DNA from: an uncultured virus (IMG/VR IMGVR_UViG_3300021197_001353)
Taxonomy: Duplodnaviria; Heunggongvirae; Uroviricota; Caudoviricetes
Length of the DNA stretch: 64,000 nucleotides
Strand: one strand, 5' to 3'
IMG/VR virus record: IMGVR_UViG_3300021197_001353
Below, piece after piece: positions 10,814 to 59,700 of the stretch. A program made the translations under genes and the position numbers. How positions within the stretch are numbered: the first letter of the stretch is position 1; every line of letters starts with the position of its first letter. Below the pieces are notes generated by a model. It saw only the letters and a program-made list of their open reading frames with translations, did no database searches and was not told the DNA's origin.

Positions 10814-13027
10814 ATGTACGGTAGCTATAAAATACCGCAGCAAAGGCTGCCGCGTTCTAAGAAAACAACCAAGTGGGCAGAAGATTGCGTAAAAGCATTT
10901 GTTGACATGTCAAAGTTTGGATTGTCTGAACGACGATCTGATCTAACACAGTTGTACGAATACTACAATGGAGTTGTCAACGACGATGACTACAGCTACG
11001 TACTAAAGCCTTATGGAAAGTCACGATCTAACTTTCCCTCTAAGATGCGTAACTACCCAATCATCAAGCCTATCATTGACTTGTTGCTGGGAGAGAAAGC
11101 AAAGAGACCGCTCAACTACTCGGTCACAGTAAGTAACGCAGACTCCGTATCTCAAAAAGAAGAAGCTAAAAAGAAAGCATTGTTTACACAAGTGCAGAAG
11201 ATGTACTTGAATGAGTTTGCAAAGCAAACAGACTTCGACCTGCAGGAACAAGAATTAGAGCTGCCCAAGCAGATTATGGAGGAGTTTGAACGTACTTACG
11301 TAGACAACAGAGCCATCAAGGGACAAAGTGCCGTCAACTATATCATGCATCACCAAGAGATGTATGACAAGTTCCAGAAAGGATTCTTCCACTTCTTGGT
11401 TACGGGTGAGTCTTACTCCCACAAAGGAGTGCGCCGTGGTGAGCCGTTCTATGACATCATCAACCCACTTGATGTAGACTTTGACAAAGACCCAGACATA
11501 GAGTTTGTGGAAGACGGGGACTGGGCAATTATACGTAGGTACGCACACGCGTCTACAGTAGTAGATATCCTGGGAAACTACTTGACACCCGAACAGGTAC
11601 TGGAGCTTGAGAACCCTAGACAGGAATCAGCCGAAACATATCTATTGTCCCGATCAGAAATGGCCGGTGCGAATGAAAACATGTACCGCAACAGGATGAT
11701 GGAGGTTGTTACTGTGTACTGGAAGAGCCGTAAGCGTATAGGCTTCGTGACTTACAAAGACCCCAATACAGGCACAATTGAAGAGATGGAGGTAGAGGAC
11801 GGCTTCAGAATGCCCGCTGAAATGAAAGCACAAGGAGGCAAGTTGAAGTACGAGTGGGTAAACGAAGTATGGGAAGGCACACGAATCGATGGTAGATTCT
11901 TTGTCAAGATGTCCCCGATATCTAACCAGAGAACGTCACTAGACAATCCGTCACTGTGTAAGCTCCCAATCAACGGACGTCGTTACTCTGACATCAACTC
12001 AAAGAACATATCACTCGTGTCTTTGGGTATCCCGTTCCAATTGAACTACAACATATTCAAGTACCGCATGGAGCTGGCGATTGCGAGGTCTAAGGACATC
12101 ATCGCTCAGTTTGATATCAACATGATACCCAAGAAATGGGACATGGACAAGTTCATGTACTTCGTTGAGGGCACTGGTATTGCTTGGGTAGACTACAATA
12201 AAGAAGGTATACAACTCTCACCTCAACACCAGTCCGTGCTGGATATGTCCATCAAGACTATATCACAATACCTCCAGCTGCTGGAATCTATTATGATGGA
12301 GTGGGAGAAGATATCAGGTGTAAACAGACAACGCCAAGGCGGCATCGGTCCCTATGAAGGAAAAGCAACATCCCAACAAGCGATTGTTCAGTCATCGCAC
12401 ATTACTGAAGATCTTTTCCGCAAATTCTCACGATTTGAGCAAAGAGAACTCCAAGGCCTTTTGGATTACTCTAAGGAAGCTTGGCTTACAGGGAAAAAAG
12501 CGATGTACGTCATGCCCGACATGACCACAGAAATGATTGAGATAGACGCTATGCAGCACATGGAAAGTGAGTATGGCATATTTGTTTCTGATGCTGGACG
12601 CGACCAAGATAAATTAGAGCAAGCAAAAGCACTTTCTCAATCAATGATACAGAATGGGGTTCCGGCTTCAGCAGTCATGGATTTGTTTGACACAGAGAAC
12701 TATGCAGGGATTAAGGATAAGATTGCTTCTGCAGAACGAGCACAGAAAGCGTTGGAGGCAGAGCAACAGAAAGCTCAGCAGGCCGCTCAGATAGAGCAGC
12801 AGAAGACTCAGCAGATGCAGATACAGCAACAAGCTGTAGACAAAGAAAAGGATCGTCAGTTGGCTATCGAGATTGAACTTATCAAGGCGGAATCTAGAGA
12901 TACTGATAACCGTCTAGAGATAGACATGGCTAAGATGGCCAAGGACTTCGAGATTAAGGAGAGAGAGCTAGAGCTGAAGCAGCAAGCACTCAACAAGGAG
13001 GGAGATCTTACACCTGATGGCAAATGA
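10814..13027 (+). CDS. Portal protein
   Basis: Follows TerL; motifs PQQRLP, NYPIIKPIIDLLLGE, WVNEVWEGTRI, ISGVNRQRQG; C-terminal Q-rich coiled coil. Confidence 0.92.
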   Translation: MYGSYKIPQQRLPRSKKTTKWAEDCVKAFVDMSKFGLSERRSDLTQLYEYYNGVVNDDDYSYVLKPYGKSRSNFPSKMRNYPIIKPIIDLLLGEKAKRPLNYSVTVSNADSVSQKEEAKKKALFTQVQKMYLNEFAKQTDFDLQEQELELPKQIMEEFERTYVDNRAIKGQSAVNYIMHHQEMYDKFQKGFFHFLVTGESYSHKGVRRGEPFYDIINPLDVDFDKDPDIEFVEDGDWAIIRRYAHASTVVDILGNYLTPEQVLELENPRQESAETYLLSRSEMAGANENMYRNRMMEVVTVYWKSRKRIGFVTYKDPNTGTIEEMEVEDGFRMPAEMKAQGGKLKYEWVNEVWEGTRIDGRFFVKMSPISNQRTSLDNPSLCKLPINGRRYSDINSKNISLVSLGIPFQLNYNIFKYRMELAIARSKDIIAQFDINMIPKKWDMDKFMYFVEGTGIAWVDYNKEGIQLSPQHQSVLDMSIKTISQYLQLLESIMMEWEKISGVNRQRQGGIGPYEGKATSQQAIVQSSHITEDLFRKFSRFEQRELQGLLDYSKEAWLTGKKAMYVMPDMTTEMIEIDAMQHMESEYGIFVSDAGRDQDKLEQAKALSQSMIQNGVPASAVMDLFDTENYAGIKDKIASAERAQKALEAEQQKAQQAAQIEQQKTQQMQIQQQAVDKEKDRQLAIEIELIKAESRDTDNRLEIDMAKMAKDFEIKERELELKQQALNKEGDLTPDGK

Positions 13028-14025
13028 CAAATCAGGAACGTAGACAGCTACTGAGCAGGTTCCGCCAATCAGGTATGGAAGGGTCTATACTAGACGTCTT
13101 CCAAGCCGCTGAGCAAGGAAGAGACTTAATAGGAGAGTTTCAGCAACAGCAGGAAAGAGAACAACCTGTAGTAGCTTCAACTCCAGACGAACAAAGGGAA
13201 GGACTACGTCCCTACCATGCAGCCGGGGAAACGGATCGCTCTATGATTTTCAAAGACGTGCCTCCTAACACCCCATTCAACACGATGGGCATGAAGCGTC
13301 CCATCAATATAGAGAAGCGTGACCCAGAGACGGGACATCTTATAGAATCGCACAAGAGCGTTCCCCCCGGCATTCGCAACGTACCCACAGGACCGTACAG
13401 AGGAGATGTGATAGAAACACCAGCTGATGGCTACCAGGATGGGGGCTTTGTCTTCCAGAGGAGTATGCAGACTGGGGGCTTTACTGAAGGTGGAGAGTTA
13501 GACGAGTCACTGGACGCAGTGACAACTGAGCACTATCTAGCCAAGACTAGGGGCCAGACCCCTGAGTTCTGGAGAGCTACAACAGACACTCTTGCCTTCC
13601 ATGAGTCAGGACCACATCAACGCATGAGCCCAACAGCTGTACAAGACGAAGGAGGACCTGGTAGAGGCCTGTTGCAGTTTGAGCCAGAAGCCTTGAAGAC
13701 TGCACAAAAGAGACATGCTGTTGTAGCTAGAACAATGGGACTGCAGCCAGATCCAGAGATCATGCAGGCAACAAGTGCAGACCAACTATCTAAGGATCAA
13801 CAGTATACACTGTTCTACTCTGATATAATACAGAACGAAAACGTACCACTGAAGGACTACGCCAAAGGCAAGATGTCAATAGAAGACCTGTGGATAAAAG
13901 GCCACAAGAAGAAAGAGGCAGAAAGAGACAGAGGGTCTTTCCAAGAATCTCGGAAAGCCGCTAAAACCGGGCTAAAAGACTTTGGCCTGAAAATGGGCGG
14001 GGCAAGGCGGAGATGGAGCAAGTGA
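13024..14025 (+). CDS. Virion-associated protein with a lysozyme-like C-terminal domain
   Basis: LAFHES...GGPGRGLLQFE resembles the catalytic-Glu and GLLQ motifs of lysozyme/transglycosylase folds; several xxxGG motifs. Confidence 0.55.
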   Translation: MTNQERRQLLSRFRQSGMEGSILDVFQAAEQGRDLIGEFQQQQEREQPVVASTPDEQREGLRPYHAAGETDRSMIFKDVPPNTPFNTMGMKRPINIEKRDPETGHLIESHKSVPPGIRNVPTGPYRGDVIETPADGYQDGGFVFQRSMQTGGFTEGGELDESLDAVTTEHYLAKTRGQTPEFWRATTDTLAFHESGPHQRMSPTAVQDEGGPGRGLLQFEPEALKTAQKRHAVVARTMGLQPDPEIMQATSADQLSKDQQYTLFYSDIIQNENVPLKDYAKGKMSIEDLWIKGHKKKEAERDRGSFQESRKAAKTGLKDFGLKMGGARRRWSK

Positions 14026-31964: not shown

Positions 31965-32628
31965 CGAGATTGCATACAACATACTGAACCTTCTTAGAGG
32001 CGGCAGGACTCACAATGATGAGCTTATATCTATTGACCAGATTAAGTTCAACATACAACACTACCGTGCTATGCTCATACGTAGGGACTACGCCCGCAAT
32101 GGCTACGTCTCTAAATCGATAGAGCAGGATCTAGGCTGTCTATTCCTAGAGTCTGTAGACATGTCCAAATGCTGCGGTATGGATCTGCCTACGGGATGCA
32201 CTGTACACAGAACAAAGAGACGTCTACCCAAAACTGTACGGTTCAATTTGTCAGATGCATTCACGTTTATAGGTAAACCTAATGGTGCAAGCACTATACC
32301 TAAGATGGAAGCCTATGAGTTAGATTGGGTACCTTACGATAAATATACATCTAGAGAAATGCGTTACTACGTAATTGATGAGTATATTTACGTCTACGAA
32401 CCTCAAGGCTTAGAAGCAATAAATGTTCGTGGCGTATTCGAAGATCCTGAGGAGATAGGAAATTTTGCTACATGTGATAGCGATTTTTGTTATGACGAGC
32501 AAAGTCACTATCCCTTACCTATGGATATGGTTAGCGCTATAACAAATGGTTTGGTACGAGGAGAGCTGTCACTCCTAACCACAACTATTAACGATACTGA
32601 GAACGACAGACAACAAGATAAGCAATAA
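31951..32628 (+). CDS. Tail ring / tubular structural protein (crAss-like)
   Basis: MTLDEIAYNI, QIKFNIQHYRA, YIYV, RGVFEDPEE, YPLP motifs. Confidence 0.75.
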   Translation: MMTLDEIAYNILNLLRGGRTHNDELISIDQIKFNIQHYRAMLIRRDYARNGYVSKSIEQDLGCLFLESVDMSKCCGMDLPTGCTVHRTKRRLPKTVRFNLSDAFTFIGKPNGASTIPKMEAYELDWVPYDKYTSREMRYYVIDEYIYVYEPQGLEAINVRGVFEDPEEIGNFATCDSDFCYDEQSHYPLPMDMVSAITNGLVRGELSLLTTTINDTENDRQQDKQ

Positions 32629-34121: not shown

Positions 34122-34394
34122 ATGGCAACGGCAGCATGGACACGGAAAGAGGGTAAGAACCCATCAGGAGGACTAAACCGAAAGGGCATTGCTTCTTATC
34201 GTAAAGCCAACCCCGGCAGTAAGTTGTCTATGGCTGTTACAGAAAAGAACCCCACAGGTAAGAAGAAGTCTAGACGTAAGTCATTCTGCTCTCGTATGTG
34301 CGGGATGAAAGCAAAAAGGACAGGCTCCAAAGGTAAGAGAGATCCGAACTCAAGAATTAACAAAGCACTACGCAAGTGGAGATGTAGATGCTAA
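34122..34394 (+). CDS. Small basic protein (DUF6321-like, from memory)
   Basis: AWTRKEGKNPSGGLN...RRKSFCSRM...SRINKALRKWRC. Confidence 0.75.
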   Translation: MATAAWTRKEGKNPSGGLNRKGIASYRKANPGSKLSMAVTEKNPTGKKKSRRKSFCSRMCGMKAKRTGSKGKRDPNSRINKALRKWRCRC

Positions 34395-34406: not shown

Positions 34407-34799
34407 ATGGGAACAATTAAACAACGATTTACGCTGACTTCTAGCGGGTCTTCAACCACAACATCTTCAGGATTTACGGTAAACTTTGCCGACAGCTTGG
34501 CTATTGAACAGCCTGTGGTAAACATGGCGTCTGGAACAGTGACAAGTTCGACGGGACCTGATACGCTTATATCTAACTCCGTATCGGATTCCACGTACAT
34601 ATACATTAAGTACGTAAGTGCATCGGCAGGCACTCCTGTTATGGTACTAAGCACTGTGGCAGGTACCCAGAACTTTTCTGACATGACTGTAGGGGAGGCA
34701 ATCTTCCTGCCACTAAAAGGTGCTACCGGTATTAGAGTAACAAGCAGTGACACCAACGCCATTCGTTATGAATACGGGTACTGGACCAAAAATGTCTAA
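34407..34799 (+). CDS. Small beta-rich structural protein (likely paralog of 29697-30089)
   Basis: 130 aa; YIYIKY, MTVGEAIFLP, YEY motifs. Confidence 0.65.
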   Translation: MGTIKQRFTLTSSGSSTTTSSGFTVNFADSLAIEQPVVNMASGTVTSSTGPDTLISNSVSDSTYIYIKYVSASAGTPVMVLSTVAGTQNFSDMTVGEAIFLPLKGATGIRVTSSDTNAIRYEYGYWTKNV

Positions 34800-35026
34800 T
34801 GGCCAGCGAAGGACTAAAGAAGTGGTTTGGTAGAAATCAAGGCCGCGGATGGGTTGACTGTAAGGCAGCTAAGGCTGCTGGTAAGTTTGTACCCTGCGGC
34901 AGGAAATCAGCAAGTAAAAGTAGGAAAACAGGATACCCGGCCTGCCGCCCTACTATGAGCGCATGTACTAAGGTAGGCATGCGTAGAAAAAAATCATCAC
35001 AACGGGTATCTTGGAAAAATAAATAA
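34799..35026 (+). CDS. Small basic Cys-containing protein (DUF5872-like, from memory)
   Basis: GLKKWF..WVDC...CGRKS...YPACRP. Confidence 0.7.
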   Translation: MASEGLKKWFGRNQGRGWVDCKAAKAAGKFVPCGRKSASKSRKTGYPACRPTMSACTKVGMRRKKSSQRVSWKNK

Positions 35027-35028
35027 CA

Positions 35029-37161
35029 ATGAATTACGGTAAAAAGAAAATGAGGCCAGGCGGACTCAAAGCAGCTACAGCCAAGCTCAAGAAGAAGAGC
35101 TACGGTGGTAAAAAAAGAATGCAGAAAGGCGGAGCTAAGCCTGACTACCTTGACCTTGATGGTGACGGTAACAGAACCGAACCTATGAAGGGCGCAGCCA
35201 AAAAGAAAATGATGGGCGGCGACTACATGCAAGAGTCTAACGAAGTCAAGTTTGGTGGACCTAGCAAAATGCAGCGAGGTGGAGCATCCGAATCGCAAAA
35301 GAAAGGACGTGAGGCTGCAAACGCTTATGAAGCAAAGCAGAAGAAGAAGAGAGAGGCAGCGAAAAGAAAGGCTGCCAATGAATCTCCTAGAGCTCGTAAG
35401 CAAAACACACCTCAAGGTACTGGCGGAGGAGCTAAGTCTAAAATGGACCAGATAGCTATCGGCAGGGCTCAAGGAGCTACTAAGGTAAAACCAAAGTCGA
35501 AAGTCACTTCGAAGCTGAACCAGCTTAACAAAGCACCCAGCAAAAAAACAGGCAATGACAGGTCATTCAATACAGCTTTTAGTGATGCCCGTAAAGCCGG
35601 CAAAACCACATTCATGTGGAGAGGCAAGAAGTATGGCACCAAGACAAAGGCAGAGGCTTCGAAGACAAAGCCTATGAGCACAATTGCTAAAAAGTCTGCT
35701 AAGGCTATTGGTGTAGAAACAAGCAAAGACCTTAAGATGTCAGCGCCCCTTAAATCTGCTGCACCCGCACCTAAGACTAAATCTAAATCTAAGTCTACGC
35801 GTGCTGATAGAATAACAGCTAGAGGTACAAAGAAGGCTGGTAAGATTACAGCTAAAGCAAATAAGAGGGCTAGTAAGATTACTAGACGTTCTAACATCAA
35901 GTCAGCTAAGGCAGACGCTAAGAAGGCGATCAGAGCTGCTAAGGGAAAGCCAGAGAAGAAGTTTATCGGTGGACTCGTTGGTGCTGCAAGAGGCTTTAGA
36001 AAAAACAAAGGAAAAGGTCTTGGTGCTAGACTCAAAGGTTTGGCTTCAGGTGCTGCTGGCGGATCGATGCTCGGCAGAGCAGCTGGTGCTCTCAAAGGTA
36101 TGAGAGGGGCCAAAGGCAAGGGACTCAAGGGTAGACTCAAAGGAGCTATGAGCGGTGCACTGAGAGGCAGCGGCGATGAGATCCAAGGAGGAATGGACCG
36201 GGCAGGAAGAGCAGGAAAAAGAATGGCTCGTAGAGCTGGTCGTATGGCTCGTAAGGGTATTGGAATGGCTAAGGACGCAGCATCTGTTGCACTCGGAGGT
36301 CAGGATGAGATGATGTACGGAGGTAAGAAGAAAATGTACGGAGGCTCAAAAAAAAAAGTAGATAAAAAACTGTTCGGTGGCAGAGCAGCTAGACAGGAGC
36401 GTCGTGAGGACAGACAAGAACGTCGTGGTGCTCGTCAAGAGGCTCGCCAAGATGCTAGGGCTCAGGGTGCAGGATTCTTTGGTGCAATGGGTGCAGGTAT
36501 GCAAGCTGGTAGTGACATGCGTCAAGAGCAGCAGCAACAGGCTATGGGTCAACAGGCCCAGCCACAACAACCTGCTCCAATGAATCCGGCCCCGCCTGCC
36601 CCAATGGTACCAGCTATGATGCAGAAAGGTATGGTTAAAGGACAGATGCCTACAAAAACCATTGACGGTAGTGGTGATGATCAGTTCGCGGCTGGTGCTC
36701 TCAAATCTGCACCTCCAGGCACCATGAGAAAAGGTGGTGTAGCTAAGAAGCTATTCGGAGGTAAAGGTAAAGAGCGCAGGGAAGACAGAAGAGAGAGACG
36801 CGGTATTCGTAAAGCTCAAAAGGCTGAAGACAAAGCAGCACTTGAGGGCTTGAGCGGAAAGGAGAAGAGACAGGCTCGTAGGAGTATGCGCCAAGACAGA
36901 CGTCAAGACAATAGAGAGCTTAGAAAAGAGCAGCGTCTTGAAAGGAGGGGAGTAATGCCGGGTGCCGAAGGTTTTGAGGATGTGCAAGAGACAGATGCAG
37001 CATTGACAGGTTCAGCGGCTGGAGGTATAGACTTGAGAGCCAAGAAGGTCGGACTGGATACTGGCGGAGGTGCAGCTAAGAGAGGTGGATTTAAAGACCG
37101 CCGCAAAGGCCGCAAGAAGAGCAAAACAATGGGTAAAGGTGGTAGAAAAAACAAAAGATAA
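35029..37161 (+). CDS. Highly basic low-complexity protein with repeated xxxGG motifs
   Basis: 710 aa, K/R/A/G/M-rich, about 14 xxxGG motifs; DLDGDG and F..AF..AR..G...F.W.GK.Y.T modules. Confidence 0.85.
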   Translation: MNYGKKKMRPGGLKAATAKLKKKSYGGKKRMQKGGAKPDYLDLDGDGNRTEPMKGAAKKKMMGGDYMQESNEVKFGGPSKMQRGGASESQKKGREAANAYEAKQKKKREAAKRKAANESPRARKQNTPQGTGGGAKSKMDQIAIGRAQGATKVKPKSKVTSKLNQLNKAPSKKTGNDRSFNTAFSDARKAGKTTFMWRGKKYGTKTKAEASKTKPMSTIAKKSAKAIGVETSKDLKMSAPLKSAAPAPKTKSKSKSTRADRITARGTKKAGKITAKANKRASKITRRSNIKSAKADAKKAIRAAKGKPEKKFIGGLVGAARGFRKNKGKGLGARLKGLASGAAGGSMLGRAAGALKGMRGAKGKGLKGRLKGAMSGALRGSGDEIQGGMDRAGRAGKRMARRAGRMARKGIGMAKDAASVALGGQDEMMYGGKKKMYGGSKKKVDKKLFGGRAARQERREDRQERRGARQEARQDARAQGAGFFGAMGAGMQAGSDMRQEQQQQAMGQQAQPQQPAPMNPAPPAPMVPAMMQKGMVKGQMPTKTIDGSGDDQFAAGALKSAPPGTMRKGGVAKKLFGGKGKERREDRRERRGIRKAQKAEDKAALEGLSGKEKRQARRSMRQDRRQDNRELRKEQRLERRGVMPGAEGFEDVQETDAALTGSAAGGIDLRAKKVGLDTGGGAAKRGGFKDRRKGRKKSKTMGKGGRKNKR

Positions 37162-37163
37162 TT

Positions 37164-37406
37164 ATGTACAAAGCACTAGATTACAAGAAGAAGGGAGGCT
37201 TTAAGATAAGCGGACCCTGTAAATCTGCAGCTAAGAGTAAGTTTGATGTATACCCTTCGGCATATGCCAATGCCTGGGGTGTACGTTGTACTAAAGCTGG
37301 TGGGCCTGGAAGTATGGGCAAGTCAAAGAAGAAGGATGGCGGTGCTATAGATTACGACTTCGACAAAGAGTACGGTAACAAGATATACGGTAGAAGAAAA
37401 AAGTAA
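37164..37406 (+). CDS. Small basic protein (YPSAYAN motif)
   Basis: C.SAAKSKFDVYPSAYANAW..RC flanked by KKKGG and KKDGG. Confidence 0.75.
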   Translation: MYKALDYKKKGGFKISGPCKSAAKSKFDVYPSAYANAWGVRCTKAGGPGSMGKSKKKDGGAIDYDFDKEYGNKIYGRRKK

Positions 37407-44800: not shown

Positions 44801-45374
44801 TAATGAGAGCAAGCCCGGTGACTTCTACAATGTTAAGTACAACTTTGAGTTGGAGTACATAGACAACGCAGAGCCTGGATCAAACAAACTGTACAGCAAT
44901 GTATACTACTGGGCTGATGCTAAGAAAAGAGATGATGTCAACGTTACGGAGTTCAAACGACAGACGTTCCCAATCTTTGATAGGTTCTACGTATACAACG
45001 TAGATCAGATATCAGGAGAGTACACAGATATTTCGTATCTTAACAACTGCAGATTAGTTGACAAGATATGGTATATCAACTCGTTCAGGGACCTGTCTTC
45101 TACAGTAACTAATACCAACAGTTACATAAATACAGGGAAGCCAAACGTTGTAGGTAACTTGACTACGTCTATACAATCCACTAAGGAGGATACACCCATG
45201 TTCACCGAAGAGGGTATACCTAATCCTGATTATATAACTGCAGATAAACAATGGTTCTTGCAAAAGAAGTTCTCTGGTCACTATCTAGGGGTCAGACTTA
45301 TAAGCAACAACCAGAGTGAAAACCTGATACACTTGTACGCTGCAGGTACAAAGTATCGCAGATCTTTTAGATAA
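38862..45374 (+). CDS. Muzzle / tail stabilisation protein
   Basis: MKKFVGGMNKD start; IYFTDN, LYLGNL, FKRGDVYAFYI, FGGDTYISRY, WTLSY, W.S.HSYTP; 2170 aa. Confidence 0.85.
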   Translation: MKKFVGGMNKDTSKADQPNGTYRDALNAVVSLETGTVNNEYGTNSATGANIDVCGAIPITEERVIFLGLDLDGVSTIAMSNPSKGESTVLYKDSNLNFKLSHPIAGEYRQDAKNDIIIYFTDNYFEFDEDINEATYVSNYNPPRTFNVTRQLQAFANLGVDTSRLYGESNYNVDKLTLFPDVGAHSRIKNAYVREGGAVVAATYHLALAYADEDFVETNYFVVSNPLYVVPEPDNTLPADIVIGAQKGTVTTKSLHWELYVPRNVNYKYVQPAVIQRIGDAENVYRMNRVEIQFSGNEDLGQLSNVDGQDISGSPSIPTQSFDVPSVLVDEGVSSGRTPVIERNQENQDTYRDLRTEAARTPAAQTRFVNIVFTGREDVSTLSTLDIVADRIKYLTAKTLTQLNDQLYLGNLISRKDIGFQRYCTNIRVKPVVKAVEGFDRRSFDIITLNKGYGTMTMPYWHAVNHPRGFDGVGQSYYQSVGGTDGAPLTNLPAGSPTANHMYPDYISAIADYLRYDSTGSNILRIGSAKTGVQYSLADATRRGYKDNRFTYRGKTFKRGDVYAFYISFVLKDGTETYAYHIPGRPPLPLFWSSTHKDVMGLEGYTEDQRWQFLLKKDLGTWYTGTSYLMENDKFTTMSGMQWYSHGYYPNEIVDQNKDARIHQYLDTSYTVNSSNVEIPNFDDYRYNMGFWENENEYYPTSPDFRFTDVNATNGSALDQILVPSGPGEYDHLFYTLQRRRVRHHKMPSNYSRDFSYIQYSSASVAGSEPSTGTANNAVGSLSFDRNYGALFFENTANLEKRGFMAGYEGPEGPNTIDDFDPKTLVGAPWIASHRDSTTSGYGYTKKRLISNETARILGVQFENIKIPRHILKEVQGYKIYYAKRTNSDKIVAGQSLAIPCMPRFASSPNQNRLLARKGPYFNAFYAYGGLRNDMETAMAVAADWRGSYHTDNEPNPEDPTILRAPEVLGNTTPVDTMFRYYGNPVFTFHDFGMLRKRPSLNTVTHVQCQAAIGFRHYQGGPGVFGNRKEDQELKDDGSSYTLLTTFPSLGWISQGLGNIVDYNVDGEIYDVTDTFIDADEDVNNPYGNDNPPANDEDKPGGFFKRSFRRLRGKEKDIDDVEDYSDVSELRARRYRIRQYRGGAYIACAHYYPEDIYKHPEIIVGGDHRKDSENDWANTGYTDGYGFDFSNTHARPANNQFLFATDPGSKTYLPGLKNLRTPESSSFKGAQYIFNRGGETSIVMGLVSGLPHLKGIVPFRANAGEYEPFYTGAADGGITGPYNIAAWGDEDKFLFPDAFVSGTDPKRDFPIPDYFAQNPAVSDDLNGPGSQYKGLNYTLSGADSKFGFPMAWLINVCAAKTDVYNPFDKQPLVWTGFYHSITEEFEDFEQAAGLDEGTIAAELLKETPTTAYPHVLFDIDVAAPYMKYFEGASSDEVFGGDTYISRYSFRTTSHSYGHSWFRASVDLGDAGPDGQNSNEEYEVIAHPGAVGNSKNTSQKDVPDFLSLNDFGTAWGTTSGMLVWKGTNNASDIGTNIDLTDGLNGNESQKIEDFVANTLMNAQNWQQGKSDPMTAMFSFMIESDDNIGLRHARDTEKGVGTKFFDFNTAAEVLFSPPTQDFTKQDNLLYEDHLSYLQDKKVTVPFPKERAGVEENDSFATRIIRSKTATGSLSDRYREFLANDYADIPKNRGEVTNLFTIGDTLYIHAEKAIFQTKGNEQLELGSVKAFIGSGDIFAIAPTELQNSEIGYGGTTSFLSSLTTQFGHFYVARRNRKVHMLTQGIEEVMTGMEHWFRDNIPFAIESYGINVDAEDFAYNPDSPLDINNPMGFHVGYDAKFKRIVLTKRDLKPTQALIDGIADGSIEVKNNSFVTTEDTGTKSAARIEKLNSLVENTTKHSPLGPGDRAREVANNPDDGSNKGKVTDDIIGLGNETYFERVGWTLSYLPELKMWISRHSYTPNLYINGEYDLYSVEGKGFFKHDNESKPGDFYNVKYNFELEYIDNAEPGSNKLYSNVYYWADAKKRDDVNVTEFKRQTFPIFDRFYVYNVDQISGEYTDISYLNNCRLVDKIWYINSFRDLSSTVTNTNSYINTGKPNVVGNLTTSIQSTKEDTPMFTEEGIPNPDYITADKQWFLQKKFSGHYLGVRLISNNQSENLIHLYAAGTKYRRSFR

Positions 45375-47878
45375 TGAGTAATTGGATACGAAAGGCAAAG
45401 AACGAAATGGAAAAGAAAGGCACTACCGGTGCTTTCACTAGCTGGTGCAGTGACCGTGGGTACGGCAGTGTGACGGACAAGTGCATACAAGAAGGCCTTG
45501 ACTCCAAGAACATCACCACTCGTAAACGAGCACAGTTTGCAAAGAACGTGCAGAAGAAAGAAGCAGGTGGTGCCGTGCTACAATCTATACTATCCAATGC
45601 AGGTGCTAAAGAGGGGCAGGGCATGAAGTCATTGCTAGAGGATAAGTTTATGGACATGCGAGGACAGATGGGTGGTGGTCAGATCAAAGACGCACTCAAA
45701 GACGGGATAAAAGGATTGAAGCCTAGCATGGGTACTATTGTAAATTTAGGTGCACAGGCTTTGGCTAAGAGAGCTGAGAACAAGGCAGGGGCTGTATCCA
45801 TGGCTGACCCATACCGCAACAATGTAATGGAGCGTAAAGCCTCAAAGAGGAGAGGTTTTGGTACAGGATTTAAAGCAGCGTCAGATAGTCAAGTTGGTCA
45901 AGCACTTGGTAAAGTACCAGTGTTTGGTAAGGTGCTTCAAGCTGGTGCTGGTCTTGTAGGTGGTCTTTTGGGTGGTAAGAAAGCTGAAAAGCAGCAGGAG
46001 GCAGACCGTAAAGAATCAGTAAAGCAGCTACGAACTACGCAGCAAGCTCAGCTTGCACAACAGGCTTCTCAAGCTTCGCAGTTTGACTCTTCTGGTGAGA
46101 CTGGATATGCAGACGTAGGTGCTAGCATAACAAATTCATACCTAGCTCAGAGAAGAAGAGGCGGCAAGTATCAAGAGGGCGGGGTGTACCAAGGCAAGAA
46201 ACTTCCAGGTGGTAAGACTGAACCACTACCCGGAGGGGCACTAGAATTTGTTGGAAAAAAGCACAGTCAGGGTGGTATCATGCTCGATGCTCAGACGGAA
46301 GTCGAGGGTGGGGAAACAATGGATAAAGTACAAATGAAAAAAACAGGGGGCGCTATGCAAGACTATATATTCTCAGACCACCTCAAGCTTGGGGGTAAAA
46401 CCTTTGCTGCTAGACACAAGGAACTTGTGGAAGGTGGTGCTAGGCAGGAAAAAGTACAAGAGCTTGCTAAGATGCAAGAAAAGAAAGCAGGTAGAACTCC
46501 CAAGGTTATGCAATTTGGGGGCGCTACACAGTATCAACGTATGCAGGAAGGAGGCGTAAGCTCTGCTAGAGCGCAGAATGCAGATGAAAATCTAGACGCT
46601 GAAAATGCATCAGGTATGGATGCTGGTGAAATAATGGTAGGCGATCAGGCTTGGAGCGATACCAACAGACAAGCAGAATCTACGGACGGTCTCTACGGGG
46701 GGCAGAGCCAAGAAGATGTGTCTAGGAATCTGGAGAGAAATGAGTGGTTTGATACAAAAGACCAAAGGTTTGGCCCCGGTGGATTTGATGCAACAAACGA
46801 GGAACATGTAACAATATTCCAAAAAGAATACAATAAGCGGGCCGGCAGCGCAAATAAGACAGAGATCAAGGTAGATGGTAAGTGGGGTAAACAAACAACT
46901 ACAGCAACCATACCAAGTGCAGTGCCTGAGCTGGACCCGAAAGGGGTAACTAAGGAGAATCAAGAAGTAGAGAAAGAGCTTATTGTCCCACCTACACAGG
47001 AAGGAGAAGATAAAGTTGTAGAAGAAACAGGTGGTAACCCACCGGTCAAGACTAACAATGTACCTACACTAGGGTACCTAGGCGGTGGTCTTCAACTCGT
47101 TCCTCCTATGTACGCATTGAAGAACCCACCTGCATACATATCAGGTCCCGGTGCTGCATCAGTGCAGTCTCCTGATATGCCTAGGGTAAACTACAACGCA
47201 GAACGCTCAGCCAATGCCAATGACTTCAGAGGTGTGGTGAATGCAATACAGAGCAATGCGGGTGGTCCTGCTGGCATGGTAAACATGCTTGCAGCATTGG
47301 ATAAGAAGCAGTCAGCTGACAGGCAGATAGCAACTGCAGAAAGCAGAGCCAACAAAGAGCTAGCTGGTGAAGAGAAGCGTATGAAGTTTGCGGCAAGCAA
47401 AGCCAACGCTTCCCTAGGTTTGGAGGCCAGCATGTTTGCATCTAAGATTGCACGTGAGCAGATAAGGGACAGACGTGAAGAGAAGCTCGGAGCTCTTGAT
47501 TCCCTAAGTGAGCGACTTGCAGGTATGGGTAGAGACCGCATGAACTATCAAGCTACTGAGAGACTCGCAAGAGCTATCGGCAGAGACGGTGTTTATGACA
47601 GAGAAAGATTGTACGAGTACTACCTCGGCCAGGGTATGGATGAGACAACAGCATTGGAGCTTGCAGCAAAAGGGGCACAGCAAGAAGCAGAGGTAGAAGA
47701 AAGAAGTACAGGAGATGTCAGAAAGGAGATGCGGACGGAGGACAGAGCGTCTAGAAAAGCTACCAATCAAGCCACCAGAAGCGCTCGTAAACAAGGTCGT
47801 AAAGCGGTAAGAGATGCTAGAAAATCTAAAAGAGGTGGTATCTTTAGCAAACTTAACAAGTATAGAAGACGTAAGTAA
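45374..47878 (+). CDS. Virion cargo (ejection) protein 1
   Basis: GKKHSQGGI, EVEGGET, YIFSDHL core; Gly-rich amphipathic segments; VDGKWG peptidoglycan-binding-like motif; multiple xxxGG motifs. Confidence 0.75.
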   Translation: MSNWIRKAKNEMEKKGTTGAFTSWCSDRGYGSVTDKCIQEGLDSKNITTRKRAQFAKNVQKKEAGGAVLQSILSNAGAKEGQGMKSLLEDKFMDMRGQMGGGQIKDALKDGIKGLKPSMGTIVNLGAQALAKRAENKAGAVSMADPYRNNVMERKASKRRGFGTGFKAASDSQVGQALGKVPVFGKVLQAGAGLVGGLLGGKKAEKQQEADRKESVKQLRTTQQAQLAQQASQASQFDSSGETGYADVGASITNSYLAQRRRGGKYQEGGVYQGKKLPGGKTEPLPGGALEFVGKKHSQGGIMLDAQTEVEGGETMDKVQMKKTGGAMQDYIFSDHLKLGGKTFAARHKELVEGGARQEKVQELAKMQEKKAGRTPKVMQFGGATQYQRMQEGGVSSARAQNADENLDAENASGMDAGEIMVGDQAWSDTNRQAESTDGLYGGQSQEDVSRNLERNEWFDTKDQRFGPGGFDATNEEHVTIFQKEYNKRAGSANKTEIKVDGKWGKQTTTATIPSAVPELDPKGVTKENQEVEKELIVPPTQEGEDKVVEETGGNPPVKTNNVPTLGYLGGGLQLVPPMYALKNPPAYISGPGAASVQSPDMPRVNYNAERSANANDFRGVVNAIQSNAGGPAGMVNMLAALDKKQSADRQIATAESRANKELAGEEKRMKFAASKANASLGLEASMFASKIAREQIRDRREEKLGALDSLSERLAGMGRDRMNYQATERLARAIGRDGVYDRERLYEYYLGQGMDETTALELAAKGAQQEAEVEERSTGDVRKEMRTEDRASRKATNQATRSARKQGRKAVRDARKSKRGGIFSKLNKYRRRK

Positions 47879-50744: not shown

Positions 50745-53700
50745 ATGTCTGAACCATTAGATCCAGTAACAGGCCTACCTGTAAAAGAAGGCCCTACCGA
50801 TCCCGTAACAGGTTTGCCTGCTGTGGGACCACTCAATCCTTTTTATAGATCTCCGCTCGCGGGTACGACTGTGTATACAGGAGACTCTGATAAGTATAAA
50901 GACTACAACGTACCACTAACTCCATACGGAGACATAGACGAGGCACGTGCCCAGAACCAGTCCGCCTGGGAACAGGTACGTAATGGCTTTGGTAAGGCAG
51001 CAGTTACAGCAGCAGGAGCTACAGCAGAGAACACCCTTGGATATGCTATGGGTCTTGGAGACTTCGTACTTAGTGGGTTCGAAGACTTTGATGAATCTAT
51101 GACAAACAACCCCGTGGGTAGATTTGTGGATGAAGCAAACGAATACGCTAGAGAGCATCTCCCCAACTACTATACAAAAGAGGAGGAAGCAAACACAGGT
51201 AAGATTGGGAACATCTTTACTGCAAACTTCCTAGCTGATAAGTTCCTGAACGGAGCAGCATACTCACTGGGCTCTATTGCTAGCATGTATTTGACAGGCG
51301 GCACAGGTCTAGTTGCAAAAGGATTGCTCGGTGCTGGTAAGATGAGTAATGCTATGGCAGCACTCAAAGCTGCACGTGCAGTCAAGTCAGGTAAGCCCAT
51401 TAGAGAAGCCATGCAGGCTGGGGCTAGCCTCAACAGAGCAAAGAACGCATTTGGTTACTTGGAGGGTGGAGCCATGATGTCTATTGCAGAGAGTGCAGTA
51501 GAGTCAAGAGAGGTAGGGAAGAGGGTGAAGGAAGAACTGCAGCAAGAGTTTATGCAGCAACGAGGTCTCAGCAATCCCAATGACATACCAGCACACGACA
51601 GGGCACGCATTGAGCAGTTTGCAGAAGAGCAGGAGACGTTAGCATTCTACGGCAACATGGCTGTGTTGATGCCAACAAACCTGATGATGTTCGGCAAAGC
51701 ACTAAGACCATTCAAGGCTGGTAAAGATGCTACCAACACAATAGTAAAGACTGCAGCAAAGGAGGGGGAGAAGAAAGCATACATCACTGCGTTAGACAAC
51801 CTGCCCGGGTATGCTCAGAAGGGGGTAGCTGTAGGGCAGAAGATAGCTCCTTTCATAGAGGGTGCAGCCATAGAGGCGTTCCAAGAAGGAGCACAGTACT
51901 CTATATCTGAGGCACTCAACGACTATGCTTTGGCTAAGTACAAGGAGGATGACGGTAGTGCAGAGCTAGCAGACGGATTGTTGCAGGGTGCTTTTTACAA
52001 GTCAGCAAAAGATGCATCAGCTGTGCTCGGGGAACAGATCATGAAGACTGTTAACAGCCCTGAGGGCAGAGAGCAGATGTTGATTGGTGGTCTGGTTGGT
52101 TTGTTGTCTGGTGGTCTTGGTGGTGGTGGTAGATCTAGACGTAAGGCAAAGGACAAAGCCACAAAGAACGCACTTGACAAATTCAACCTCAGCGACCAGG
52201 CATTTGTAGGAATGTCCGAGCGGGCTGACCACAACAAGCTGCAGAAGCTCTACATCAAGATGATGGAGGGAGCAAGAGAAGCGGGGGACCAAGAGTCCTA
52301 TGACAATGCACGCCACGCACTACTTGCTCATGAAGCCATGTTCCACATAGAGCATGGTACTACGGACATGTACAAGGACAGACTTGAGGAACTTAAGAAC
52401 CTCCCAGCAGAAGAGTTTGCCAAAGTCATGAACATGGATACTGCTACAAAAGAAGAGCAGACAAAGATCATTGATGATGTCATCGAATCTGCTGAGCGGA
52501 TGGAGATGAATTACAATGCCATCTATGACAGATTCCCAGGCACCACTCCTTCCACAGGTTTGAAAAAGGCTCTTATGTCTAAGGAGGCATTGAAAGAGGA
52601 GAAGGCATCGCGGCAGGACGAAGAGCTCATGCGCCGCAGCATGCTGTACTACAGCTCTGTGCAGGGAAATAGAACTACGAGAACCAACGACGCTCTGGAT
52701 AGAATCTCTGAACTTGATACCCAGTTTGACCGCAGTGTTGTAGACATCTTCAGAGATAGCAAGTACAACCAGCGTCAAGAGGGTGAGGAAAAACAAACAC
52801 AACCTGACAGAGCAGAGTACGAAAGAGAGAAGGCAGCCACCATAGAGAGAGTTTCTCAGCTTGATGCTATTGCCGGAGAGATTGTAGCGAAGGAGTTCGA
52901 GAAGATCGAGGGCTTGATGGACGAAAGAGACAGAGCTTACAATGCTTACAAGGAACTGATGACCAACCCTACAGAGCGTAGGGGATATTTGCAAAGACAG
53001 AGGGCCAAACAAGAAGCTCTCAAGCAAGAAAAGCTAGATGCTCTTGGAGACAAAGCTGTTGAAGAGACTAATACAGATCAGGAACTTTCTGAAAAGCTGA
53101 CAGGTTTGAAAGAGGCTGGGGTATCTGATGAAAAGCTTGATGAGCTCCGGCAGGTAGCAAACGACAGAAGAAACCAAGCAGCAGCAGCTGAGATGAGGTT
53201 TGCTCGTATGAAAACAAGCGAACTCAAGGGGCTGCTTAACGACGATAGCTTGTCTGCTATTGAGCGTGCTGCTATACAGAGAGAGCTTGAAGAGTTGAGA
53301 CCAGAAGGCCAGGAGGCACCACGTGAGAGATCACCACAGCCCACGACCGAGTCGGTGAACAAAGATGTCAACGAGTCAGCACAAGAAGCTGACGGTACGC
53401 AGTCTAACAAGAGCGCACAAGAGAAGTTGGCAGAGAAAGCCAACAAGAAGAAAGTTGGTAGAGGTGCGGGGGAGCTTCAGACACGGCATGATGGACAAGG
53501 AGAACTATCTGCATCAGGCGACACACACTTGGTATCTACATCAGGTGAGCTGCTCCCCAACCCTGAGTACCATACTGTAGGTGAGGATGAGAAGCCACTC
53601 ATAGATGGTAGAGAGATGCTGGCCACACCAGACTTGGTTGGGAGAGAGGTTATTCTTAGACCCGTAGAAACCAATTGGTGGTTGAGAGAGGGGCAGAGAC

Positions 53701-56700
53701 TCGATCCAGAGAACCCACACATCCACATGCCTATTGCTGTGGAGATAGACGGAAAGGTTATCGGTGTGCTTGGTTCAGGCAACACGCAGATGAGAAAGGC
53801 GGTCCTTGACAACCCGACCGGTTCGATCACAACTACGATCACTGATCGTATGCTGAACAACCTCATCACTGCTACATCCATGGAGAACAACGTGGCTACA
53901 GGCAGCCCGTTCTTCTTCAACCCCCAAGACCTTGGTGACTCCTATCTCGCAGTAGTAAGAATCAACTCACAGGGTGAGCTGTACTACGACCTCAACCTCC
54001 CTGAGGACATGGAGGCTGCAGGTATTAGTGCTGAGGAACAGGAGGCACTCACCAAGTCACTGCAAAAGAACGAAGCTAGGCTCAACGAACTGCGTGAGGA
54101 CGGCAGTGAAAGACTAGCACCTGGTCAGCTTGTGATGTTCCGTCGTGACCCTAACGGTGACCTCAGAGTTATTGTGGGTAGCACCAGCAACCTCACAGAA
54201 GCTGACGTACAGTTTGCTCTTGACCAGATGGCTAAGGGCGATCAGGAAGCACTCAAGGCATTGGTGGGTCTGAATGCACAGTACGACCTCGAGGCTATGG
54301 CAGCCAACAAAGCACAGAACTCCAAGAGACTTCTGTCTGAAGCTGCCGGTGACCTTGTACTCTACACGTTTGACCCACTCGATGCACAGGGCAACAGAGT
54401 GTTGAAGCCTGGTGAGATGGCACAGGTCAGCGACAAGATGATTGCTCGCATGATGGCGGGTGAAATGATACCTTGGAATGAACTCGAACCTATCGAGCGT
54501 CAGAAGATGGTTGTCATCCCTACTGTATCAGCAGAGGGTGGTGTCAACACCAAGGGTAGGCCTGAGTCAGACACTGATGCACAGGCTAGAGGTAAGGATA
54601 TCTACGAGAACCTGCAAGGTTACCTTACTAACTTGCTGCAAAACAAGAAGATACACGTAGAGGCATCACTGTTGAACCAAACTAGGTTTGGCAGTAAGGA
54701 AGCATTCCCACACCCAGCAGGTAGACGGACTGCACCATACAACAACTACGAGGAGTATCTCTTCGACCCACAGAATGGTCAGCAAGGCAATGGCTTCTCT
54801 GGTATCTTCAGAGTACAGACCAAAGAACGTAACGGCACTGTCTACACAGACGTGGGCCTGAAGTTCTCACCTGCATACAAGGTGAACGGTGAGCAGGTTG
54901 ACCCTGCTACGACAGTCGTGGCTGAACCCAAGCAAGAAAAGAAGCCTGCCAAGCCGCAGGGTGCTAAGCCTAAGAAGAAGACACGCAAGAGCCGTAGTAA
55001 GACAGGCAAGAAAGGTGGTGTCAGCAAGGAGAAGTTTGAGAGTCAGAAGGAAGAGGGTCCTACAACCAGTGGAGGTATAGTTACGGGCAGTGCTGCACAG
55101 ATAGCCAAGGTAGCCTATGAGAGCTTGATGGCGACAGGACAGACCTCTCAAGAGGAGGCGCTACGTCAAGCAAGACAGATCTTCCCGCCCTTCGCACCAA
55201 AGCTTGGGACCAAGAAGTCCAAGGTGTTGGACAAGAAGAAGTCCGAGGCATGGCTGAAGAAGAGAGGCATACCAGTAGAGTGGTACGATACAGCACAGAA
55301 GCTGGGTGGTGCACACTTGCATGGTTACTACCAGAACGCAGCAGTATATCTGTGGACCAATGGTGCTGCAGGCACAGAGTTTCACGAGGCATTCCACTTC
55401 GTGTTCAGATCATCTGTAGATGAGAAACAGAGAGATGCTTTGTATAAGGAGATGCGTACACGCATCAACAAGAGCGATGAGCTCAAGGAGACATACGACC
55501 AGAAGCTCGCAGAACTGCGCAAGGCATTCCCCAATGCATCAGTAGAGCTGTTGGCCTTGGAGGAGATGATGGCTGATGAGTTTGCTGACTACGTGACAAC
55601 ACAAGAGGAGACAGCAAAGACACTCCCTGCCAAGATCAAGAAGTTCTTCAAGGACTTGTATGCTATCATCAAGTCACTGTTCAAGAATCCTCTCACCATG
55701 AAGGAGCTGTACAGTGTCATTGAGAGTGGGTACAAAGCGTTCCCTGCAGAGAGAGGTACATCGTTCATGCAAGACATGGCACCTCGTATGGTGCAGGAGT
55801 ATGCTGATGAACCAGAGCTGCATCAGGACATAGTCAACACACTGGTGACTGACTTCGAGAACCAGTACAAGAAACTGCAAGAGTCAGGTAAGACAGCTGC
55901 GGAGATAGAGCAGGACGTATTGCAGTTGATGGGCGACAGCGCTACCAACAGAGGTAAGATTGCAGAGACAGCATTGCTGAGAGGATTCTCTCTAGCAGAC
56001 AGAGAAACTATTGATGAGAACTCAGAAGAGTTTGAACAGTTGAAGGCTGCCTTCCACGACAACACATCTGAATTGGGTAGGGTAGATCAAGAAGGCTTTG
56101 AGAATACAATAGAAGAGCTAAGCAAGAAAGGCATCTTCGCCGTAGCGCCTAAAGGGATCAACGAGGTGATCGATGACATGGGTTACGAAGAGACCATGCT
56201 GCTGTCCGAAAGTATGCAGAACGTATACTTCTCTTGGATGGACGAGATAGCTGACCCTAACACAGGGAACATAGCTAGCTCTGGGTGGAGAACTGCAATG
56301 CTTGATGAACTGCAGTTGTATGGGTACACCTTCGGTGATACCAGACTTGCAGAGAATGCACTGTCCGAGGACGAGATGGACCAGTACGACAAGATCTACT
56401 CACTGGGTTCATTCGAACAGCTACCTGACGAAAGGTTGTCCCCTAGCGCGCGTGCGTTACTACATAGCATTAGCGACCCAACCCCCAATGAATTGGGGCT
56501 GTACGTAAACTACAATGGATTCGAGTTGTACCGCAAGGCAATCAAGACTGTAGCGGGTGCAGATACCATCAATGAGATGCGTACTAAACTTAGAGGTAAA
56601 GCAGCTGTAAGCCCTGAACTTGGTGAGCTTGCCAGCTTCCTTGAAGATGAGAACACACCAGGGTGGGCGAAGGCCACACTCTTCAGAGCACTGCGTGTTG

Positions 56701-59700
56701 ACTACACAAAGAACGTGACTGTCGTACAGTCATATGATAAGAAAGGGGGAGTCACACAGAAGAGCACGAAGATTGTAAACTCTGATAACTCTAGCGCTGC
56801 ACGGCAAGCACTGCAGGAGTGGAGAGCAAATGCAATACAGGGTGAAAAGGTGGACAAGCCTACCGCTGTGTATGTGCAGACAGAGGAGGGACTCAGAACG
56901 AAAGACACATCCAAAGAAAAGCTGCAGCGTGCACAGCTTGCATACAAAACATTTGCTGAGGGTGAGACAATAGCCGACAGAGCACTTGGTTTATCTGACT
57001 TGTTGTGGGAGGTTGGTGTCCGCTTTGGGGACAACCAGACTACAGCAGCTATGAACCTGCAGACTTACCTGACAGCTATGGCTGAGAAGGATGGTGTGAC
57101 AGAAGCCAAGGTATTCCAAGATCTGATCGACAACATACAGATTGCAAACATGGTGAAGGCTATGTTTGAGACTGCGGGTGGTAGAAGAATCACTGATATC
57201 AAAGCAGTCAAGGAGAACCCAACCAACATCTTCACAAGTGAGGGTAGTTCTATAAACTACCTTGGTGAACAGGTCATGGGTTTTGTTAACTCAGGCAGCA
57301 TGGCAACGTTTGTGTCAGGTGGTAAGACTCTGTCTGCATTCCAATCTCCCACAGACATGAACGACATGCTTAAGGAGATGGGTCAGCCTAGCACGCCCAA
57401 CACAATGTCCAATTTGAAGAGCGACATGACACAAGATCCGTCGTTCTCTATGGGCAATCAGATTCCCTACCAGATGTTTATCTACAGACTGATGGGTAAG
57501 CAGACATTCAAGCCTGAGGTACAACAGGTCTCATTGCTTAGAGATGAGGAGGACAACGGTGGTGACGAGTACAGACAGTTGACTCCTAGGCAGGAGCTGC
57601 AACTGAAGATAGACATGTACCTGAACAACGGTAACAAAGCAGACGCACAGTATTTCGTATCCACACAAGAGACAAGAGGCAGGTTCCAACCTGTAGCCAT
57701 GCCGCGATTCACTCGTAAGAGTGCTATGCAGAAGCACGGTATCACTGACAACTCAATGCGTGGTTGGATACGTGGTGCTATTATGCAGGAACTGGTACGC
57801 GTAGGTAAAGCTAGAGACGAGGTACGTTTGGTGGAGAAGGGAATCATGAAGTCTGAGGATCTCCTCGAGGGTTACCATGACGGAGGATATAACTTCATAG
57901 CCATACCCGGTGTAGAGGATACTATGTTCAACGAGCAGTACCTGTCCGACATGATCTATCAGGGTATCACCAATGGGCACATCACCCCCAACCTTGTAGC
58001 TTCGCAGTATGAAGAAGCCATGGGCGCTGTTACTGAGATGGCAAACAGGTTCATGCAGGCTACGCTAGAGACAGCAGTATCAGAGTTGAAGGATCAGATC
58101 GTTGAGTACAACCTGTGGAATGCTGAAGAGAAGGATGAGAAGACCGGTAAGGTTATCAAGAAACTCCGCCACAACTTTGACAACAAAGCCATGGAGCGGT
58201 TGTACAAGAATGACCTAGACCTCATGCTGAGAGAGTATGTAGAGAATGACTTCATCTTCCGCTACGAGATGTCACGTGTTACACGTGGCAACATGGCATT
58301 CCTCAAGCCTGGTAACCAGCTTATCGATTTCTATAAGCGTAATGGTCTGCTCAACTCACCGGGTATAACTATGTTCATCAGAGAGGAAGAGGGAGGCTAC
58401 GGTGCTGACCCCTTCATGAACGTTGCCAACATGCAAGACACTTGGATATACGACGAGGCACACAATGTGATTGCAGATAGAATACAACAGTCTGTACAAC
58501 GAAGCTTAGAGTTGCAGGGTATGGACGCATCTCTTGCCAAAGAAGAAGCTAAAGCAATAGCTGACGAGTACAAGACTACAGCCAATGGTAAGGGGTCTGA
58601 CGCACAGGCATTCTTGAGTGAAGAAGGAACTAGACAGTTCATGATGGGTGAGGGTCTGTGGAACAAAGAACTCAGACAGCACCCAGACGGTAGATTGCTG
58701 ACAGATGACGAGTGGTTCCAAGAGTACATGGAGAGTGACGAAGCACCATGGCTTGCTCCTACCACCCCAAGGAAGTACATGGCACTGCACACATTTGCAA
58801 TGGGCAATACGTATGCCCCATCACTGCAGAAAAACTCTTTCGTCTCGCTGACTAGGGACTTCACTGCAGGTCACCCACTCCTTGATAAGATGCGTAGAGA
58901 AATGCGCGCTAAGAACATCCACGTTGTCAACACAATCAGTGGTGAGAAGGGGGCGAAGCGTGCTGTAGCAGACTACGAGAACGGGGGTGAGCTGATAGGT
59001 AAGCCCATGGAGACTCGTAAGTTCAGACAGTCACAGACTATCATGGACAAGAAGTCTAGCAACGTGAGGCTGAACATTCAGATCACCAAGAACCAGTTCG
59101 CTGGTATACAGCTAGAATCAAACGAGTACAAGTATGATGCAGGAGTTAAAGGGGTTGAGCGTCAGGTCTCAGGACAGCAGGTGTTCACTGACTTCCACGA
59201 GAGCTTTGTAGAACTGCAGCGTAGAGCATTTGATGACATGAAGCAGGAGCTTGGGTTCGATGCTCTCATGCAGCCACTGACAGAAGAGGCACGTAACCTT
59301 GCTAAGCTGCAAGTACTGCAGAACATACGTAAGCTGTTCATACAACAGAAGATTAAGAACAACATGCTCGATGACAACGTCGTCAAGCAGATGGAGATTG
59401 TCAAAGACTTTGACGGTAGCTATAACTTCGCTCTACCGATGACGTTCGCACAGAACCAGAAGGAGTACGAGAACATGTTCTGGGCAATCTTTAAGAAGCG
59501 TATCCTACGCATGAACATGCCAGGTAAGGAGCTGGTACAAGTAGCATCACCCGGTGCGTTCTCTGTGTTCAACTTCAAGACCAAAGAGTATGAGCAAAGA
59601 GAGCTGCAATACATGAGTGTGGATGACAATGGGTATGCAGCACACGCAGAGGTCATGGTGAGGGCTGATATCCTTGAGAAGCTTGGACTACAGCCAGGAG

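Follow-up and report, generated by a model that had tools for sequence, protein, structure and literature searches.

Do the Gly-Gly motifs repeated along a large basic phage protein mark sites at which a polyprotein is cut, or do they serve, if anything, some other function? The question is raised by a 710-aa protein, designated P0001, encoded in the 64,000-nucleotide stretch of DNA (the window) that was analysed from an uncultured virus (IMG/VR IMGVR_UViG_3300021197_001353). The xxx-Gly-Gly motifs that divide P0001 into segments are termed joints.

The P0001 gene and its product

The source contig has 84,751 bases and may be incomplete; near-identical DNA is present in seawater metagenomes from several studies. 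The window holds the virion module of a crAss-like phage, with genes for a terminase, a P22-like portal, the crAss major capsid protein, tail rings, a muzzle and large cargo-type proteins, and Pfam and PHROG matches to Crass_capsid (PF23898, E 5e-75), CrAss rings 1 and 2 and a crAss-type terminase and portal place the P0001 gene within a Crassvirales virion module. This fast-evolving gene lies between a tail ring gene (31954-32628) and a gp42-like gene, and has three small basic genes as neighbours:

34122..34394, plus strand: free-standing basic DUF6321 module with a Met start and no joint; elsewhere fused via xxxGG or xxE
34799..35026, plus strand: free-standing basic GLxxWF module, 75 aa; fused after xxE in T4-like cyanophages
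35029..37161, plus strand: P0001, 710-aa basic modular protein
37164..37406, plus strand: 80-aa basic protein, a YPSAY module flanked by KKKGG and KKDGG

P0001 is encoded by a single open frame (window:35029-37161:+), with many stop codons on the opposite strand, and this frame contains all 14 motifs listed in the first-pass annotation. K and R contribute 16.2% and 10.0% of the residues, respectively (K+R 26%), G contributes 14.9%, and the net charge is +125. Protamines are short and mostly arginine. With 710 aa, and with Lys (16%) in excess of Arg (10%), P0001 is lysine-rich, and its initial description as protamine-like was an overstatement. The protein has 20 separate GG sites. The 14 motifs among them have their second Gly at residues 12, 27, 35, 64, 77, 85, 315, 432, 439, 451, 570, 578, 687 and 705, and form tandem runs with a spacing of 7-8 residues. 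Complete cutting at the 14 motifs is predicted to leave four large pieces (109-230 aa), one of 29 aa and ten short ones (5-18 aa). Joints and modules are arranged as follows:

35050..35283, plus strand: N-terminal cluster of six joints (MRPGG, KSYGG, MQKGG, KMMGG, VKFGG, MQRGG) around two modules
35563..35646, plus strand: F..AF..AR..G...F.W.GKKY module
35959..35973, plus strand: joint KFIGG, followed by a Gly/Ala/basic module that spans residues 316-381; all 11 distinct copies (11 of 11) have GG
36310..36381, plus strand: joints MMYGG, KMYGG and KLFGG, before the first R/E/D/Q-rich stretch
36724..36762, plus strand: joints MRKGG and KLFGG, before the second R/E/D-rich stretch
37075..37143, plus strand: C-terminal joints AKRGG and MGKGG

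The modules within the N-terminal cluster are DxDGDG (residues 36-58) and DYMQESNEVKF (65-77), and PHROG 24078 weakly matches residues 23-68. P0001 has no HExxH and no Pfam family match (E 0.01), so that the EF-hand and histone-H1 labels first attached to its segments lack Pfam support; the DLDGDG and F..AF..AR..G...F.W.G modules are, however, real and recur elsewhere. Two joints of the N-terminal cluster carry a Gly-to-Ser change in other strains. A 7-residue repeat, LKSAPPG (window 36688-36720), differs in copy number between strains, with indels of +21 and -18 bases in other runs. Contigs from RNA runs cover parts of the gene, a coverage to which DNA carry-over could have contributed.

Joints and module borders

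Motif counts in P0001 were evaluated against 2000 shuffles, and in a local variant against 40-aa local shuffles. Gly-Gly as such is barely enriched (22 versus 15.7 after shuffling, p 0.039; 17.6 after local shuffling, p 0.13), whereas [MKYFA]xxGG, the pattern singled out in the first-pass annotation, occurs 13 times versus 6.0 (p 0.006; local p 0.015). Two patterns chosen post hoc, [KR][MYFL]xGG and [FY]GG, occur 5 and 6 times, respectively, versus 0.5 each, and [MIL]xGG occurs 6 times versus 1.8 (local p 0.03), with most joints fitting a different spacing. What is enriched is thus the context, in the order K, M/Y/F, x, x, GG, and hardly the total of GG.

In a homology search with P0001, 12 proteins passed, one of them a 99% strain variant, and no close homolog was found in a cultured phage. 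Positional orthologs, anchored on the gp42-like neighbouring gene, were collected from 49 viral and 80 metagenome loci, 129 in all. Among those listed of 97 proteins, the basic genes at the P0001 position cannot be aligned over their full length and have the same short modules in a different order, sometimes spread over 2-3 genes. In 228 distinct basic ORFs of the 129 loci, whose sequences are related and not independent, [MYF]xxGG occurs 247 times versus 46 after shuffling, and M, Y or F is 4- to 5-fold enriched three residues before GG. No such enrichment was found in 88 gp42-like ORFs (0 versus 3.2), 251 unclassified ORFs (37 versus 35) or 29 phosphoesterase ORFs. The exceptions are ring 1 (43 versus 6.5), where a single internal KKMLLGG site accounts for the excess in the 12 contexts inspected, and the muzzle (144 versus 68). 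The N-terminus of the muzzle protein of this phage, MKKFVGG (window 38862-38882), has the letters of one P0001 joint type, a resemblance that may be due to chance or be structural.

The motif also coincides with the limits of homology. In local alignments of 88 representatives, 195 of 577 internal ends are within 6 residues of a motif, versus 73 expected, and the C-terminal ends of homology peak on the second Gly. Control motifs gave 26 versus 19, 12 versus 13 and 112 versus 103 in the same representatives, and values were also raised for other GG (111 versus 80) and for [MYFK]xxKG (61 versus 32). At homologous joints all four Gly codons are used and third positions vary freely with the Gly-Gly retained, which argues for constraint at the protein level. 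Variants do occur (AG, GA, GS, GK); after one module, 38 of 57 copies have GG, 6 GA and 4 GK. The motif is, therefore, non-random, constrained at the protein level and marks module borders.

Some of these features are those expected if the joints were flexible hinges and scars of recombination or duplication, Gly/Lys-rich repeats that permit shuffling and are read by nothing. The slight enrichment of total GG, the tandem 7-8-residue runs, the tolerated variants and the proximity of other GG to homology ends are all consistent with this explanation. A hinge would, however, not need M, Y or F three residues upstream, and a scar would not be expected to keep Gly-Gly as third codon positions drift, and we consider this explanation improbable.

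The small basic modules are not limited to crAss-like phages. DUF6321 is matched by 507 phage records, modules of this type are so common that about 59,000 stretches were estimated for a pattern scan, and small basic modules of this kind are shared with T4-like cyanophages; at the level of gene clusters the DUF6321, PSAY and GLxxWF modules are shared with T4-like phages, in which a DxDxDG stretch is also seen. In six T4-like cyanophage records, modules are strung together at VNE, VDE, VEE, LNE or IDE, with G, A or K as the next residue; one such polyprotein begins with a predicted propeptide that ends in FIEE. By analogy with T4, these xxE sites would presumably be cleaved. Crass-like and P22-like phages have xxxGG at module starts, and T4-like phages have xxE of the T4-gp21 type. 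Six shared modules gave 152 distinct starts, preceded by Met in 41, a G joint in 59, an E site in 25 and none of these in 27, and a G or E joint is directly upstream of 84 of the 111 internal starts, versus ~20% of 5000 random positions. DUF6321, at 80 viral loci (7 with no match), is preceded by Met in 41, xxE in 11, xxxGG in 10 and other sequences in 11; of this last group, 6 can be read by eye as GG or GS joints. The density of GG motifs in basic ORFs is 10.8 per 1000 aa at the 10 GG loci versus 0.7 at the 11 xxE loci. The register of the joint varies with the module: the starts of DUF6321 point to a cut between the two glycines, those of PSAY to one after GG. This difference in register and the joint variants, among them the Gly-to-Ser changes at two joints in other strains, count against cutting.

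Judged by position, xxxGG occupies the place that a free N-terminus or a gp21-type site occupies in other phages. As the joints stand at positions of the T4-like protease type, they may well be protease sites in a basic polyprotein of the head interior, a reading that we favour tentatively. Hinges or scars would not account for the fact that T4-like phages carry, at these sites, a protease-type sequence unrelated to xxxGG. We also considered that the joints could be uncut, repeated docking tags that bind the scaffold, the portal or the inner capsid wall and so load basic and ejected proteins. This appears unlikely, given that free modules usually start with Met and lack a joint (41 of the 152 starts, and the free DUF6321 and GLxxWF genes of the window, which have 0 motifs) and that the motif substitutes for xxE at the same place; the absence of the joint from free modules fits a release site and not an obligatory tag.

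The F..AF..AR module of P0001 occurs alone after Met between the portal and scaffold genes of the T7-like phage RHEph01, and also within cargo protein C1 of cr107_1. These locations, and that of the P0001 gene itself among ring, muzzle and cargo genes, argue against a role outside the virion, in intracellular nucleic-acid binding, in a condensate or at the lysis stage, with joints that signal turnover by the host. Such a role would accommodate the lack of virion evidence for P0001 or a close relative, and the crAss001 annotation, in which no P0001-like basic gene is found at the matching position, but we regard it as very improbable.

Joints in cargo proteins and in gp45 of crAss001

The combined motif pattern is enriched in 4 of the 23 proteins tested from this genome, namely P0001 (9 versus 1.1 after shuffling) and three likely cargo proteins:

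13024..14025, plus strand: portal-adjacent protein with joints bracketing a lysozyme/SLT-like domain (ESM Atlas leads only); motif 3 versus 0.2
45374..47878, plus strand: likely cargo protein C1, placed like gp45 in crAss001; shared basic module, E 1e-9
50745..62126, plus strand: 3793-aa likely cargo protein; motif 6 versus 2.0, p 0.014

In C1 the combined pattern occurs 3 times versus 0.8 (p 0.04), and the joints G263-G264, G382-G383 and G821-G822 show at least 90% conservation across 62 sequences with 28-85% protein identity. Such conservation would not be expected of hinges or scars, although the location of the C1 joints in low-confidence parts of the structure model (pLDDT 61) is what hinges would give. 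The combined motif is absent from the terminase, portal, scaffold, capsid and ring proteins of the genome, and there are 0 in two further genes for likely cargo, C2 (47878-50733) and a 1280-aa gene (62130-65972), which would be difficult to explain if the motif were a loading tag. The motif is thus restricted to basic and cargo-type proteins and is not special to P0001. Outside the window (L142:3980-4210), a 76-aa ORF that weakly matches dockerin/EF-hand directly follows the last cargo-type gene.

Structural information comes from crAss001 gp45, a C1-type virion protein (PMC10172136; PDB 7QOG and four more entries) with joints (AYGG, AEGG, AFGG, KDGG) around basic modules, at positions 209, 263, 332, 373, 427, 562 and 828. 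It shares a module with C1 of this genome, although gp45 matches the C1 profile with an E of only 0.024 and a fold search with the C1 model did not retrieve 7QOG. P0001 differs from gp45 in having no conserved C1 domain, and in the parts of the structural paper available gp45 is described as an uncut single chain. According to that text, the resolved segments are residues 214-245, located in the tail, and 425-552, bound to the portal, in 12 copies, and virion peptides were detected from 275-300 and 307-320 (PMC10172136). These peptides come from one basic module flanked by joints, and the tail segment, as reported, begins four residues past a joint. The portal-bound segment, as reported, begins with A425-F-G-G and thus spans a joint, and this is the best evidence against cutting. 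It also agrees with docking, as the joint begins the segment that is bound to the portal. In this paper (Bayfield 2023) gp45 is handled as a single chain and cleavage is never mentioned in the available text; the peer-review file has 0 matches for cleav/proteoly.

The MALDI peak lists from 13 virion gel bands of crAss001, as provided with the available part of the original report (Shkoporov 2018, PMC6235969), were re-matched to 31 crAss001 proteins, after a list of contaminant masses had been removed. Clear matches were obtained for gp44, gp47, gp50, gp49, gp20, gp26, gp22, gp25, gp23, gp32, gp36 and the ring proteins, and a weak match for gp29; no protein was assigned to band 10. In none of the 13 bands was gp45 matched above chance (best 5 versus 3.2), whereas the portal, which is also present in 12 copies and similar in size, was matched with 10 versus 0.9. 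The absence of a gp45 band is a weak hint of cutting, as gp46, which has no joints, is likewise unseen and gp45 offers fewer good peptides (6 versus 11 that end in Arg and have an aromatic residue). None of the 8 in-range semi-tryptic masses predicted for gp45 was matched in the peak lists.

Candidate enzymes and related maturation systems

No protease family match was obtained in scans with Pfam and PHROG (42 and 27 sequences), including C48, C39, adenain-type and gp21-type families, in a contig that may be incomplete and by a method that can miss remote folds. The Ulp1/C48 or C39 protease for which the first-pass annotation had proposed a search was, therefore, not recovered, and the sole protease-like sign is one HExxH (HEAFH, 55383-55397) in the 3793-aa protein. 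The region with this HExxH is conserved in one crAss-like relative and has no match in four other records that use GG or have DUF6321. One of these four is a 99%-complete P22-like record that uses GG, in which, from the ORF list inspected by eye, no ORF is readable as a head protease. In the ORF lists of two P22-like phages the motif is present in small basic and ejection-type proteins, with no readable head protease gene, and a protease common to the GG-using phages was not found, which weighs against cutting. The location of the motif near protein ends and in ejection-type proteins, in phages with no evident protease, agrees with docking, as does the recruitment of ejection proteins by the P22 scaffold, reported in the accessible part of a review of that phage (PMC8402733). 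Small basic proteins of P22-like phages (L001, L006, L230, L235) end in xxxGG followed by a Gly/Lys/Arg pattern, an arrangement more suggestive of a C-terminal tag than of a site for cutting.

Two other leads were followed and dropped. The conserved gp33-like gene that follows the capsid gene (16781-17587) gave a predicted fold (pLDDT 90) with no protease match, in which the first 130 residues were unmatched and barely tested; in the model, its C-terminal domain resembles the C-terminal dsDNA-binding domain of RecA (Z 9.9, rmsd 1.7, 60 residues aligned) together with SAP-like helices, and the ESM Atlas places the protein in unnamed clusters. Lambda gpH (L141:1043-3604) is cleaved at an unmapped site with release of ~14 kDa, as stated in the available text of a recent paper (PMC12617516). 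Near this cleavage, a short C-terminal stretch of gpH lies between FATGG and YATGG, but a cut at FATGG would give 12.2 kDa versus about 14 kDa, and the C1 profile is not matched by gpH.

A precedent is T4, in which gp21 cuts after L/I-X-E and the propeptide (CTS) of internal proteins both targets the protein and is cut, as reported in the accessible text (PMC9026906). Maturation of basic head polyproteins is, therefore, established in a tailed phage, and the first-pass statement that no such scheme was known there would hold only for the Gly-Gly chemistry, which alone would be new. The internal head proteins of T4, with gp21, and the DUF6321 polyproteins of cyanophages resemble P0001 in being basic, variable, dispensable-looking head-type proteins, with the same modules and with a recurring site at each module start. 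In contrast, the phage that encodes P0001 has Gly-Gly rather than Glu and a short tail, and no gp21-type protease or CTS was found; its joints are xxxGG, and P0001 has neither L/I-X-E sites of the T4 type nor an N-terminal CTS. As the two functions of the T4 propeptide are separable in the same account, the precedent is also compatible with a tag.

The adenovirus protease cuts (M/I/L)xGG-type sites, and ASFV pS273R cuts GG sites, in basic core precursors. These sites resemble the joints of P0001, being hydrophobic-x-Gly-Gly-like and located in basic core-type proteins, but in most P0001 joints the hydrophobic residue either is shifted upstream by one position or immediately precedes GG, there is no homology, and no clan CE/C48 enzyme was found. 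P0001 would work like the maturation code of T4 internal proteins, yet does not appear to belong to that system or to the adenain and ASFV systems. The core polyprotein cut at GG that was first proposed is consistent with a non-random motif at module borders and at gp21-type positions, and its C48, C39 or adenain-type enzyme was not found.

Two further systems bear on the choice of enzyme. Polyvalent phage proteins combine several enzymatic or globular domains in a chain, often including a zincin; those with a zincin-like MPTase domain are mosaic and packaged and are proposed to be processed by the zincin (PMC5512222, as far as available), and the zincin of phi14:2 gp65 is proposed, in the part of that report available, to act on cargo (10.1101/2020.03.07.982082). 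The giant cargo-type protein of this genome is similar in having one HExxH, but P0001 has no Pfam domain or HExxH and is not a multi-domain enzyme. Neither 'GG motif' nor 'glycine' occurs in the available main text of the Iyer paper (PMC5512222). In P22, the ejected protein gp7 is cut by host OpdA to give a new N-terminus Lys-Gly-Gly-Lys-Gly, according to the accessible text (PMC8402733). Here a host peptidase acts adjacent to Gly-Gly; the event differs from the situation in P0001 in being a single N-terminal cut upstream of GG that is dispensable and involves no repeated motif.

P0001 is made up of portable small modules linked by motifs of the K-(M/Y/F)-x-x-Gly-Gly type and, from its gene position and the modules shared with cargo protein C1, is likely loaded into the head. 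Under the favoured reading, that the joints are protease sites, cutting at the joints, suggested by their positional equivalence with gp21-type sites, would free the modules, and the pieces, given their composition, might bind DNA or neutralise charge. Candidates for the enzyme are the zincin-like HExxH domain of the cargo protein, at about 55125-55904, and a host peptidase; cutting could occur in the prohead or after ejection, and either within the Gly-Gly pair or on its C-terminal side. A broader and somewhat more tentative proposal is that crAss-like and P22-like short-tailed phages use a Gly-Gly maturation code, in which a phage or host protease would cut internal basic polyproteins and ejected cargo at hydrophobic-x-x-Gly-Gly, also in gp45, as the counterpart of xxE in T4, and that core modules cross phage orders by swapping cut sites.

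If the joints are cut, there would be an undescribed step of head or ejection maturation in crAss-like phages and a GG-specific protease to be discovered, and the description of gp45 as a single chain threaded through the portal would need revision. If they are instead an uncut tag, they would represent a general loading signal for these phages. In the literature searched, which included few subscription papers, no description of an xxxGG motif in phages was found. At the other end of the window (1072-2910), a gene that includes a run of N in the assembly encodes a Cys/Asp-rich protein whose C-terminal end weakly resembles the C-terminal domain of type IX secretion (PF18962; the score of 22 bits is below the cut-off).
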